In this document: positions 1 through 1,331 of the stretch, piece by piece
Layout of the letters: the number at the start of each line of letters is the position of its first letter
Position numbering within the stretch: the first letter of the stretch is position 1
Origin: Escherichia coli
Lineage (GTDB): Bacteria; Pseudomonadota; Gammaproteobacteria; Enterobacterales; Enterobacteriaceae
DNA: 1,331 bases
Strand: one strand, 5' to 3'
NCBI RefSeq assembly: GCF_003334315.1
Contig: NZ_QOWR01000117.1
Program-made: the position numbers and the translations under genes
Notes under the pieces: generated by a model
What the model was told of the DNA's origin: nothing
The model's database searches: none
The model's input: only the letters and a program-made list of their open reading frames with translations

Positions 1-41
1 TGGATTGGCCCCTATATTTCCATACACTTTTTATCACTTAA
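1..41. repeat. Terminal inverted repeat, IRR-equivalent end (distal to orfA); begins 5'-TG
   Basis: Bases 1-41 (TGGATTGGCCCCTATATTTCCATACACTTTTTATCACTTAA) align with the reverse complement of 1290-1331 (TAGACTGGCCCCCTGAATCTCCAGACAGTTGGTATCACTTAA): about 32 matches over 41 aligned positions plus one 1-nt gap. The outer GGCCCC block and inner TATCACTTAA block are conserved. The orfB stop codon (12-14) lies inside this repeat. Confidence 0.85.
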
Positions 42-917
42 CCCATTACTGGTTCGCCGCCGCAGATATTCCCGTGGCGAACGATACCCCAGTGCACTAT
101 GCGGATGCCATTCGTTGTAATGTTCGAAGGCCTCCGCAAGGTTCTTTACCGCTGTTAACCCGTCGGGTTTCGGCATGATGCTGATGTAATCGCGCTTCAT
201 CGTTTTCACGAAGCTCTCTGCCATCCCGTTGCTTTCCGGGCTACGTACCGCCGTATGTTTAGGCTCCAGTCCTACCATTCTGGCGAACTGACGCGTCTGA
301 TAAGAACGGTAGGCTGAACCGTTGTCTGTCAGCCACTCAACTGGGGATGTCGGCAGGCTGTTACCGAAACGACGCTCCACGGCACCCAGCATGACGTCCT
401 GCACGGTTTCACTGTCATATCCACCGTTACTGGCCGCCCAGTAAAGTGCCTCGCGATCGCAACAGTCCAGAGCGAACGTGACCCGCAGTTTTTCACCGTT
501 ATCACAGCTGAACTCGAAGCCGTCAGAGCACCACCGCTGGTTACTTTCTCCAACGGCCACTTTCCCTGTATGCGCCCGCTTCGATGGCGGTATTTCCGGT
601 TTACGCTCAAGCAGCAGCGCATTCTGACGCATGATGCGGTATACGCGTTTGGCATTGATCACCGCCATGTCGTCAGTTTCTGATTGTCTGCGCAGCAGTG
701 CCCATACCCGACGATAACCATAGGTGGGCAGATCGCCGATAACGGTATGGATACGGGCCAGCGCGTCAGTATCATCAGGCTTGCGCTTGCACCGACGATC
801 CTGCCAGTCCTTCGACCGACGGGCCATGGCATGCAGTTGCGCACGTGAGACCCGGAGGCAACGACTGACAAGGCTTATTCGCCATCCTCCGGCAACAAGG
901 GCACGTGCGCTATCCAC
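12..917 (-). CDS. insD: IS2-type OrfB: DDE (RNase H-fold) transposase catalytic domain, 301 codons, expected to be expressed mainly as the C-terminal part of OrfAB
   Basis: The ORF is in the -1 frame relative to orfA and overlaps it by 43 nt. DDE triad candidates read directly from the translation: D132 in WCSDGFEF (nt 522-524), D198 in WLTDNGSAY (nt 324-326), E234 in [15 protein letters not shown] (nt 216-218), with K241 seven residues after E, which is the IS3-family DD(35)E-K signature. The frame opens with GTG (917..915) and has no Shine-Dalgarno upstream. The stop is TAG at 14..12, inside the terminal repeat. Confidence 0.88.
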
Positions 918-1240
918 TTTTTTTGTCGGCCATATTCAACGGCTTCTTTTAGCAGCTCGTTTTCCATGGTTTTCTTGCCCAACAGGCGTTGCAGCTCTTT
1001 AATTTGCTTCATCGCAGATGCCAGCTCCGACGCGGGCACAACCTGTTCTCCTGCGGCAACGGCTGTAAGGCTGCCTTCCTGATACTGCTTACGCCACAGG
1101 AACAGCTGACTGGCAGCAACGCCATGCTGACGGGCGACCAGCGACACGGTCATTCCGGGCTCAAAACTCTGCTGAACAATGGCGATTTTTTCCTGAACAC
1201 TTCGCCGTCTGCGCTTCTCTGGACCTAAAACATCAATCAT
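12..1240 (-). CDS. Predicted OrfAB fusion transposase (about 409 aa) made by programmed -1 ribosomal frameshift at 917-923
   Basis: OrfA residues 1-108 (through the AAA AAG codons at 922..917), then a -1 slip, then the OrfB frame continuing VDSARAL... This joins the HTH and putative zipper of OrfA to the DDE domain. The architecture is standard for the IS3 family; expression of the fusion is inferred, not shown. Confidence 0.75.
839..910 (-). other. Candidate frameshift-stimulating RNA structure: nested long-range stem-loop starting 6 nt 3' of the slippery site
   Basis: Perfect 9-bp complementarity between 902-910 (CACGTGCGC) and 839-847 (GCGCACGTG), and a 7-bp inner helix between 886-892 (CCTCCGG) and 852-858 (CCGGAGG). 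The 27-nt apical loop contains the orfA stop codon (875-877). No folding energy was computed. Confidence 0.4.
875..1240 (-). CDS. insC: IS2-type OrfA: small HTH DNA-binding regulator/transposition protein, 121 aa
   Basis: ATG at 1240..1238 is preceded by GGAG (1249..1246) with a 5-nt spacer, and the ORF ends at TAA (877..875). The product [52 protein letters not shown]... has a basic N-terminus and a helix-turn-helix typical of IS3-family OrfA (about residues 30-51, nt 1088-1153), followed by a heptad-like Leu/Ile-rich segment (about residues 72-100). The ORF-track start at 1303 is a TTG inside the inverted repeat with no RBS, so I prefer the ATG at 1240. Confidence 0.9.
917..923 (-). other. 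Slippery heptamer A AAA AAG for programmed -1 frameshifting, embedded in an A7G run
   Basis: The minus strand reads GGC CGA CAA AAA AAG TGG in the orfA frame. The plus strand shows seven consecutive T (918-924) flanked by C917 and G925. The orfB frame opens exactly here as GTG GAT AGC. Confidence 0.8.
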
Positions 1241-1245
1241 TCGGA

Positions 1246-1249
1246 CTCC
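1246..1249 (-). promoter_or_regulatory. Shine-Dalgarno sequence (GGAG) for orfA
   Basis: GGAG on the minus strand, 5 nt upstream of the orfA ATG (mRNA: GUUGGAGUCCGA-AUG). Confidence 0.7.
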
Positions 1250-1268
1250 AACGACTAGTCTAAAAACT

Positions 1269-1303
1269 AGTATTAAGACTATCACTAACTTAAGTGATAC
1301 CAA
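1269..1303 (-). promoter_or_regulatory. Candidate orfA promoter spanning the inner part of the left repeat: -35 TTGGTA (1303..1298), 16-nt spacer, extended -10 TGaTAGTCT (1284..1276)
   Basis: Best sigma70-like match found by eye in the 90 nt upstream of orfA on the minus strand. The -10 is weak (T, A and final T conserved) but has an upstream TG. The hexamer assignment is tentative; IS2 is known to carry its native promoter in or next to the left inverted repeat. Confidence 0.35.
1281..1298. promoter_or_regulatory. Operator-like palindrome ATCACT-N6-AGTGAT overlapping the candidate promoter spacer and -10
   Basis: Plus strand 1281-1298 is atcactaacttaagtgat, with 6-bp arms that are exact reverse complements. 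One half-site is the conserved TATCACTTAA block shared by both terminal repeats. This is a plausible binding site for OrfA autoregulation, which is inference. Confidence 0.35.
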
Positions 1304-1331
1304 CTGTCTGGAGATTCAGGGGGCCAGTCTA
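1290..1331. repeat. Terminal inverted repeat, IRL-equivalent end (promoter-proximal, upstream of orfA); tip is TA rather than CA
   Basis: 42-nt partner of the repeat at 1-41 (alignment given there). The plus strand ends ...GTCTA-3', so this terminus carries TA where IS3-family ends normally carry CA, as described for the IS2 left end. Confidence 0.85.

Follow-up and report, generated by a model that had tools for sequence, protein, structure and literature searches.

The whole window, the 1,331-nt stretch of Escherichia coli DNA analysed here, is with a probability of about 0.95 a single intact and autonomous insertion sequence belonging to the IS2 group of the IS3 family, named ISEc36 in papers and public annotation and, inconsistently, also ISEc27 at NCBI. 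This element is a named cousin of the E. coli IS2, already known and ordinary, and is common on Enterobacterales plasmids. Its naming relies on the NCBI labels and on a published copy from pGA45, not on the ISfinder references of ISEc27 and ISEc36.

Boundaries and coding content

The features of the element all lie on the minus strand and are given below in window coordinates.

1-41, minus strand: right inverted repeat (IRR), 41 nt, tip ...CCA-3' on the gene strand, presumed donor end
12-917, minus strand: orfB, 301 codons from GTG (list of open reading frames), catalytic integrase-like (DDE) part of the transposase
17-22, minus strand: TGGAAA, candidate -35 hexamer of a junction promoter that would form only when the ends join in a minicircle
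839-910, minus strand: predicted stem-loop 3' of the slippery heptamer (single-sequence fold), with a 9-bp outer stem, GCGCACGUG (902-910) / CACGUGCGC (839-847)
886-892 and 852-858, minus strand: inner stem of that stem-loop, CCGGAGG / CCUCCGG
875-1240, minus strand: orfA, 121 codons from an internal ATG (list of open reading frames)
917-923, minus strand: slippery heptamer A AAA AAG of the programmed -1 frameshift, element coordinate 409-415, as in IS2
1246-1249, minus strand: GGAG, 5 nt ahead of the orfA start codon (ATG) and conserved in IS2, likely ribosome-binding site
1280-1299, minus strand: dyad TATCACT-N6-AGTGATA, likely OrfA operator by transfer from IS2, lying across the inner border of the left repeat beside the weak left-end promoter
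1290-1331, minus strand: left inverted repeat (IRL), 42 nt, tip 5'-TA..., presumed recipient end

An earlier, sequence-only reading had placed terminal inverted repeats at both extreme ends of the window, and this is borne out by their alignment. Read outside-in, the two ends agree at 32/42 positions once a single 1-nt gap is allowed, reaching an alignment score of 21 that none of 5000 shuffles of the window attained (0/5000; best shuffle, 10), and the repeat finder recovered core arms at 9-41 and 1290-1322. IRL begins 5'-TAGACTGGCCCCC and IRR ends ...GGGGCCAATCCA-3', the latter enclosing the TAG stop of orfB (12-14). Among the copies of the element found elsewhere, five that are 95.8-100% identical to the window carry 5-bp direct repeats abutting positions 1 and 1331, with the independent target duplications GTGCC (copy L001), GTTTT (L003), TGTCA (L004), TTTCA (L007), and CCTAT (L008). 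The presence of identical copies at different sites points to recent movement.

Between these ends, two overlapping transposase genes fill the interior at 875-1240 and 12-917, as had been read from the sequence. They overlap by 43 nt, and orfB lies in the -1 frame relative to orfA. The Pfam domains detected are rve (E = 1.5e-18) and rve_3 on orfB, HTH_Tnp_1 on orfA, and, additionally, HTH_21. OrfA is a helix-turn-helix DNA-binding, leucine-zipper-like protein, and its counterpart in IS2 is known to act as a repressor. The catalytic triad D240/D306/E342 (OrfAB numbering), which corresponds to the catalytic carboxylates of IS2 (PMC3219604), is present. Fifteen IS2 residues whose mutation impaired binding or transposition were checked in the element, and all of them are unchanged except for H267Y.

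This last substitution bears on whether the window could be a dead relic, that is, a complete-looking copy no longer able to transpose by itself. The change of H267 to D abolished IS2 transposition, and some related copies are clearly defective, such as L004, with a 1-nt insertion in orfA, or L009, interrupted by an IS110-family element. However, H267 is described as a non-conserved position in the same IS2 study (PMC3219604), the window retains both reading frames uninterrupted, an intact heptamer, and the DDE triad. The identical copies moreover occupy different sites in different replicons and genera, every one flanked by a 5-bp duplication of its own, and the comparison with IS2 (pN 0.028 and pS 0.76 for orfA, dN/dS ~0.11 for orfB) shows strong purifying selection. 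Loss of autonomous transposition is very unlikely.

The strand opposite the transposase genes could in principle hold something additional, be it an antisense gene, a small RNA, or a passenger function. The longest open frame there is 92 aa (724-1002), and a stop-free frame at 318-680 is also open in IS2. Against this, the plus-strand frames of the element and of IS2 do not agree in position or length, for which the antisense candidates were rejected, and the frame open in both lacks any start codon ahead of window position 570. A permissive Rfam search of the window returned only a plant microRNA model (E = 0.35, 21 bits against a threshold of 70 bits), taken as a chance match; the plus-strand promoter scan gave a single site (748-775), which is the chance rate (1 found, 0.7 expected), and the terminator scan of the window found no terminator-like site. 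The two open reading frames and the repeats already fill the 1331 nt, leaving no room for cargo. Such a hidden function is extremely improbable. The ends, reading frames, boundaries, and domain and Rfam searches all agree with the earlier description of one complete IS2-type element with neither flanks nor cargo and no hidden novel system.

Relationship to IS2 and naming of the element

The assignment to the IS3 family follows from the overlapping reading frames with orfB in the -1 frame, the A AAA AAG heptamer, the DDE core, and the imperfect repeats with a 5-bp duplication, together with a score of 281.4 against the NCBIfam IS3 equivalog (cut-off 160). Placement in the IS2 group is based on the unequal ends, with an IRL 1 base longer and tipped by TA and an IRR tipped by CA, and on the two NCBIfam subfamily models. 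These are passed only narrowly: orfB scores 598.6 for 'IS2 transposase TnpB' (cut-off 597) and orfA 232.7 for 'IS2 repressor TnpA' (cut-off 229), margins of 1.6 and 3.7 bits, respectively.

The architecture is that of IS2 throughout. K-12 IS2A is also 1331 nt long, confirming the earlier remark that the window has the canonical IS2 length, and every landmark falls at the same coordinate in both elements (orfA 92-457, heptamer 409-415, orfB 415-1320). IS2 likewise has a 42-nt IRL and a 41-nt IRR, a TA left tip and a CA right tip, a 5-bp target duplication, and the triad D240/D306/E342. Over the 91 non-coding nt at the left end the two elements are 87% identical, even though their synonymous sites approach saturation (pS 0.53-0.76).

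Differences are found both in the ends and in the proteins. IRL equals that of IS2 at positions 1-27 and 33-42, whereas IRR differs from its IS2 counterpart at positions 7, 23, 27, 28, and 30, and a block at positions 27-32 of both repeats distinguishes the element from IS2. Position 7 of IRR is a G, as in IRL, where IS2 has a T; this G brings the donor tip closer in sequence to the recipient tip. The A run at the frameshift site is 7 long in the element (918-924; A7G) and 6 long in IS2 (A6G). The transposase is only 78% identical to that of IS2 in its middle interval, and residue 267 is Y in place of H. The two examples of OrfA substitutions relative to K-12 that the earlier reading had given are also confirmed, with RRRRSVQEK in place of RRRRTTQEK and an altered stretch of 18 residues in place of GRAKKWIAHAPLLPGDGE.

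From such substitutions it had been suggested that the window is a diverged isoform of IS2, a reading that does not survive the comparison of identities. In its favour are the shared length and feature coordinates, the similar IRL, the 95.0% identity of OrfA, the narrow passing of the IS2 TnpA and TnpB models, and the use of 'IS2 repressor TnpA' and 'IS2 transposase TnpB' as protein names in some deposited records. The ISfinder rule for isoforms, however, as quoted in PMC6807381, is >95% nucleotide identity and/or >98% amino-acid similarity, and the window shares 81.1% DNA identity with K-12 IS2, which leaves it well outside IS2 sensu stricto by the nucleotide measure. The proteins are 95.0% (OrfA against InsC), 82.4% (OrfB against InsD), and 86.1% (OrfAB, with 57 substitutions) identical to those of IS2, figures of identity, whereas the rule uses similarity. 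The near-saturation of synonymous sites also speaks against an isoform, and so do the E. coli records, which fall into two separate bands of identity to the window, each with its own NCBI name: ~6700 at 80-90%, which are true IS2 and are labelled 'IS2 family', and only 28 at >=99%. In terms of nomenclature, the measured identities refute the isoform, and overall this reading is highly improbable. The outcome that had been named as decisive against it, a best match to a different IS3-family element with different ends, came about in part: the best-named match is indeed another element, whereas the ends are IS2-like and lie exactly at 1 and 1331.

Copies that match the window at 1331/1331 positions occur in E. 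coli, both on chromosomes and on plasmids, and on Klebsiella, Citrobacter, and Enterobacter plasmids. Those that were inspected are all labelled 'IS3-like element ISEc27 family transposase' (WP_148116659.1) by NCBI; the copies labelled 'ISEc36 family' by NCBI are 99.4-99.8% identical to the window (2-6 point differences), and one 90% protein cluster carries both labels. The copy on pGA45, reported as ISEc36 (PMC4764695), is 98.0% identical to the window over its full length, with 24 mismatches and 2 gaps. The exact OrfA occurs on at least 1000 contigs and the exact OrfB on 312. One paper applies 'ISEc27' to 7-10 copies within a K-12 strain. This label is used loosely. The multi-copy element of this type in K-12 is IS2, so that paper's 'ISEc27' copies may be IS2.

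Frameshifting, promoters, and the proposed transposition pathway

Simulating the -1 frameshift fuses OrfA and OrfB into an OrfAB of 409 aa, which exists verbatim in NCBI as WP_407199621.1 ('ISEc36 family transposase'), and 'programmed frameshift' is marked by NCBI on identical copies. The A6G frameshift window of IS2 has been described previously (PMC3299598). Downstream of the heptamer, the outer stem of the predicted stem-loop begins after 6 nt and is paired in 8/8 relatives, down to ~68% identity; a C-G pair is replaced once by U-A, a compensatory double change, and once by U-G. This stem-loop may stimulate frameshifting. The stem is encoded where both reading frames overlap, so that its being conserved says little by itself for a role of the RNA, and the fold of the whole frameshift region is no more stable than its shuffles (z = -1.05).

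Two explanations involving an additional A were considered and discarded. The A7G run might have meant a naturally fused OrfAB, comparable to the engineered A7G mutant of IS2 (PMC3299598), but the extra A arises by substitutions (GCA to CAA), with the length unchanged and the frames kept separate. The 1332-nt L004 copy, in turn, might have had an extra A in its slippery run; its added base is actually at element position 163, within orfA.

Regarding transcription, the candidate hexamer TGGAAA and the TAGACT of the left tip are both identical in IS2, and would be separated by 17 nt given a 1-bp junction spacer; the junction promoter of IS2 and its 17-nt requirement are documented (PMC3299598). 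OrfA of IS2 binds residues 39-48, just upstream of an extended -10 promoter (PMC3299598). Both 7-nt arms of the putative operator dyad are identical in IS2, the spacer alone being different. A scan for consensus promoters gave no site at the left end, which fits a weak promoter while lending it no positive support; such a scan is uninformative for weak extended -10 promoters of the IS2 type. The left-end RNA was also folded with regard to sequestration of the ribosome-binding site in read-through transcripts. In IS2 this fold is unusually stable (z = -3.9), with UCUCCA of IRL pairing to UGGAGA at the ribosome-binding site, and in the present element z = -1.24, indistinguishable from shuffles.

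The element most likely moves by the same copy-out/paste-in route as IS2, for which this pathway is documented (PMC3299598), the figure-of-eight and the minicircle being known for both IS2 and IS911. The scheme is transferred by homology from an element 19% diverged in DNA. According to it, a weak promoter just inside IRL would yield mostly OrfA, which would in turn repress that promoter at the TATCACT/AGTGATA dyad, and a rare -1 frameshift would produce the OrfAB transposase. OrfAB would then cleave the CA-3' right end and join it beside the TA left end, and the resulting figure-of-eight would be converted by host replication into a minicircle. There, the abutted ends (TGGAAA, 17 nt, TAGACT) would form a strong junction promoter, and the circle would finally insert with a 5-bp duplication.

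On top of this common scheme, the A7G run upstream of the conserved stem, the G7 of IRR, and the replaced 5-nt block at 27-32 of both repeats might together raise the output of OrfAB or relax the strict asymmetry between donor and recipient ends. This could help to explain why resistance plasmids in Klebsiella, Citrobacter, and Enterobacter have acquired the present lineage rather than IS2, a proposal that is speculative and unlikely.

Relatives, distribution, and significance

More distant relatives are the ISEcl1-like elements of Enterobacter, Klebsiella, and Aeromonas plasmids, which share ~68-70% DNA identity with the window. Their two ORFs are arranged as in the window, their ends are related (TAGAYTGGCCCC... 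/ ...GGGTCAAATCCA), and the 9-bp stem that follows the frameshift region is the same. Their slippery motifs are different, with A7T in L012 and L014 and no A6G in L013.

ISEc36 itself was first reported beside blaIMI-2 in E. coli W635 and often adjoins mcr-10, blaIMI, or qnrS1. The near-identical copy L004 lies within ~1 kb of qnrS1.

The importance of the identification is small beyond correct labelling, and no new biology is indicated. Naming the element IS2 would merge two lineages that are 19% apart in DNA and differ in host range: E. coli and Shigella carry true IS2, mostly on the chromosome, whereas the present element is mostly found on plasmids of Klebsiella, Citrobacter, and Enterobacter. 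The ISEc27 and ISEc36 labels that NCBI gives to near-identical proteins can mislead descriptions of gene context, such as 'mcr-10-ISEc36-ISEc27'.

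Boundaries and anatomy

The long open reading frames of the window are two, both on the minus strand. Element coordinates (e), counted in gene orientation, are obtained by subtracting the window coordinate from 1332. The features are as follows.

Window 1290-1331: IRL, left imperfect inverted repeat of 42 nt, at the extreme end
Window 1280-1299 (e33-52): dyad TATCACT-N6-AGTGATA, both arms as in IS2, spacer alone changed
Window 875-1240, minus strand: orfA, e92 (ATG) to e457 (stop), 121 aa
Window 917-923, minus strand: slippery heptamer A AAA AAG, e409-415, at the start of the orfA/orfB overlap
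Window 902-910 paired with 839-847, minus strand: 9-bp stem, GCGCACGUG with CACGUGCGC, starting 6 nt past the heptamer
Window 12-917, minus strand: orfB, e415 (GTG) to e1320 (TAG), 301 aa
Window 1-41: IRR, right imperfect inverted repeat of 41 nt, at the extreme end

The two genes overlap by 43 nt, with orfB in the -1 frame. The alignment of IRL with IRR has 32 matches over 42 positions and scores 21, against a best of 10 among 5000 shuffles of the window, none of which came near. The ORF listing and this alignment bear out the terminal repeats and overlapping ORFs described in the sequence-only reading.

The boundaries were tested on the flanks of copies fetched from public records. Identical copies are directly bordered by 5-bp direct repeats, GTGCC on an E. 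coli chromosome (L001) and GTTTT on a Klebsiella IncC plasmid (L003). Such repeats also abut two copies 99.5-99.8% identical to the window (TGTCA in L004, TTTCA in L007) and a 95.8% relative (CCTAT in L008). The window therefore coincides exactly with a single element and includes no flanking DNA, as had been claimed, since the duplications begin directly outside positions 1 and 1331; their length, 5 bp, is the one expected from IS2. No target duplication was found in the flanks of L002 and L006, where both copies adjoin other IS ends, as expected from secondary rearrangements.

In L001 (NZ_CP103529.1, 1-7331), the identical copy interrupts a gene for an ArdC/zincin-metallopeptidase. This gene has CBASS-type genes (Cap3, Cap15-family, mCpol) on one side and a Hachiman HamA/helicase pair on the other, which places the copy inside a defence island. 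On the plasmid L002 (NZ_JBSJZM010000004.1, 4300-4380), one G separates the right end of the element from a lone 45-nt right repeat of IS2 type in inverted orientation, TGGATTTGCCCCTATATTTCCAGACACCTGTTATCACTTAACGCA. This junction of two repeats with a 1-bp spacer could have arisen by a deletion, or by an insertion directed at an end like that of IS2.

The repeats and the two ORFs fill the window, leaving no space for cargo. Rfam gave only a chance-level match, and promoter-like and terminator-like sites in the window are at or below chance. Comparison with IS2 shows no conservation of the open frames on the plus strand, and the single frame that is open in both elements is without an early start codon. 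The view that the window holds no cargo and no hidden system is thus upheld.

Identity and naming

The window aligns globally with IS2A of E. coli K-12 MG1655 at 1081 matches in 1333 columns (81.1%), and its proteins are 95.0% (OrfA), 82.4% (OrfB), and 86.1% (fused OrfAB) identical to those of K-12 IS2, with 57 substitutions and no indels in OrfAB. ISfinder isoforms share more than 95% nucleotide identity and/or more than 98% amino-acid similarity (quoted in PMC6807381). Given these values, the window is not an isoform of IS2; the sequence-only reading correctly took the window for a complete IS2-type element and nothing more, but its label of "diverged IS2 isoform" has to be abandoned. The window is instead a separately named element of the IS2 group, ISEc36/ISEc27.

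In a search of E. coli (20,395 records), 28 records matched at 99% or more, and about 6700 fell between 80 and 90%. The latter band corresponds to canonical IS2 (80.3-81.3% identity), labelled 'IS3-like element IS2 family transposase' in the spread listing. Exact matches to the window occur on E. coli chromosomes and plasmids and on many plasmids of Klebsiella, Citrobacter, and Enterobacter, labelled 'IS3-like element ISEc27 family transposase', while copies 99.4-99.8% identical are labelled 'ISEc36 family'; one 90% protein cluster holds both labels. The derived fused protein is WP_407199621.1, 'ISEc36 family transposase', and the pGA45 copy named ISEc36 by its authors is 98.0% identical to the window along its whole length. 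These matches show that the element was already known and named. ISEc36 was first described adjacent to blaIMI-2 in E. coli W635. The exact OrfA is found on at least 1000 contigs and the exact OrfB on 312, and at least 193-202 plasmid records carry a copy at 99% or more.

What has been published as the context 'mcr-10-ISEc36-ISEc27' may be the two ORFs of one element, and the 7-10 copies of 'ISEc27' that one paper gives for a K-12 strain may be IS2 copies (PMC12627040; PMC8417528). On pGA45 (KT780723, 16042-18658) two IS2-group elements lie nearly back to back: the ISEc36 copy (17330-18658) adjoins a relative of about 69% identity on the opposite strand (16042-17184), presumably the ISEcl1-like element of the pGA45 paper.

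The transposase and its frameshift region

Pfam domains in OrfAB are HTH_Tnp_1 (residues 8-87), HTH_21 (163-211), rve (233-335), and rve_3 (324-389). The NCBIfam IS3 equivalog scores 281.4 against a curated cut-off of 160, and both IS2 subfamily models are barely passed (598.6 against 597; 232.7 against 229). The catalytic residues of IS2 OrfAB, D240, D306, and E342 (PMC3219604), are present under the same numbering, and 15 of 16 further positions checked from the mutant table of that paper are unchanged; the sole change, H267 in IS2 to Y, affects a position reported there as non-conserved. Substitutions relative to IS2 cluster in a middle interval (78% identity); identity across the DNA-binding and zipper part is 96%. 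For orfA, pN is 0.028 and pS 0.76, with synonymous sites saturated, and for orfB dN is 0.10 and dS 0.93; on this comparison with IS2, purifying selection is strong.

A defective copy is found in L004 (NZ_CP195473.1, 3001-4332), about 1 kb from qnrS1. It is 1332 nt long, with a 1-nt insertion in orfA at element position 163, and is flagged 'frameshifted' by NCBI, yet it retains its duplication.

The heptamer is preceded by one extra A, giving CAA AAA AAG (A7G; window 917-924) in place of the GCA AAA AAG (A6G) of IS2. The A7G run is a feature of this lineage, L008, L010, and L015 included, and is common to all relatives of at least 93% identity. Equivalence to the engineered frame-fusing 'A7G' insertion in IS2 (PMC3299598) was rejected: here the extra A arose by substitution, with no change in length or in either frame, so that the frames remain separate.

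The 9-bp stem encloses the orfA stop codon, and each of its nine pairs is retained in 8 of 8 IS2-group relatives in the alignment, down to about 68% overall identity. One double, compensatory change (C-G to U-A) marks the window's clade, and one wobble (C-G to U-G) occurs in two sequences. By analogy with other IS3-family members, the stem likely stimulates frameshifting, a role held no more firmly because the sample is small (n=8), the segment codes in two frames, and the changes correspond to one or two events in evolution. Folded as a single sequence, the frameshift region shows no unusual stability (z = -1.05).

Ends, regulation, and transposition

The 91 nt upstream of orfA (window 1241-1331; IS2 copy L005, 2261-2351) are identical to IS2 at 79 positions (87%), far exceeding synonymous-site identity. 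The ends appear to be conserved jointly with OrfA, and both more tightly than the catalytic domain. IRL is identical to that of IS2 at positions 1-27 and 33-42, only the 5-nt block 28-32 being replaced; IRR differs at positions 7, 23, 27, 28, and 30. In IS2, OrfA binds residues 39-48, directly upstream of a weak extended -10 promoter within IRL, and asymmetric tips make IRR the sole donor and IRL the recipient (PMC3299598). The window has the same tips, a left 5'-TA, one base longer, and a right CA-3'.

When the ends are joined with a 1-bp spacer, both this element and IS2 yield TGGAAA, 17 nt, and TAGACT, which we infer to be the hexamers of the junction promoter. The spacing matches the 17 nt required in that of IS2 (PMC3299598).

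The left-end RNA of K-12 IS2 (L005, 2261-2380) folds much better than shuffles (z = -3.9), with UCUCCA in the left repeat paired to UGGAGA at the ribosome-binding site of orfA; for the window, the corresponding fold is not significant (z = -1.24).

The anatomy is observed directly, and the transposition steps are those we infer from IS2 (PMC3299598, PMC3219604). Weak transcription from the left end would yield mainly OrfA, repressing its own promoter, and an occasional -1 frameshift would produce OrfAB. This would nick the right end and transfer it beside the left end, forming a figure-of-eight that replication would convert into a minicircle. The junction promoter would then raise transposase expression, and both ends would attack the target, leaving a 5-bp duplication. 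Identical copies occupy unrelated sites in different genera, which argues that the element has moved recently.
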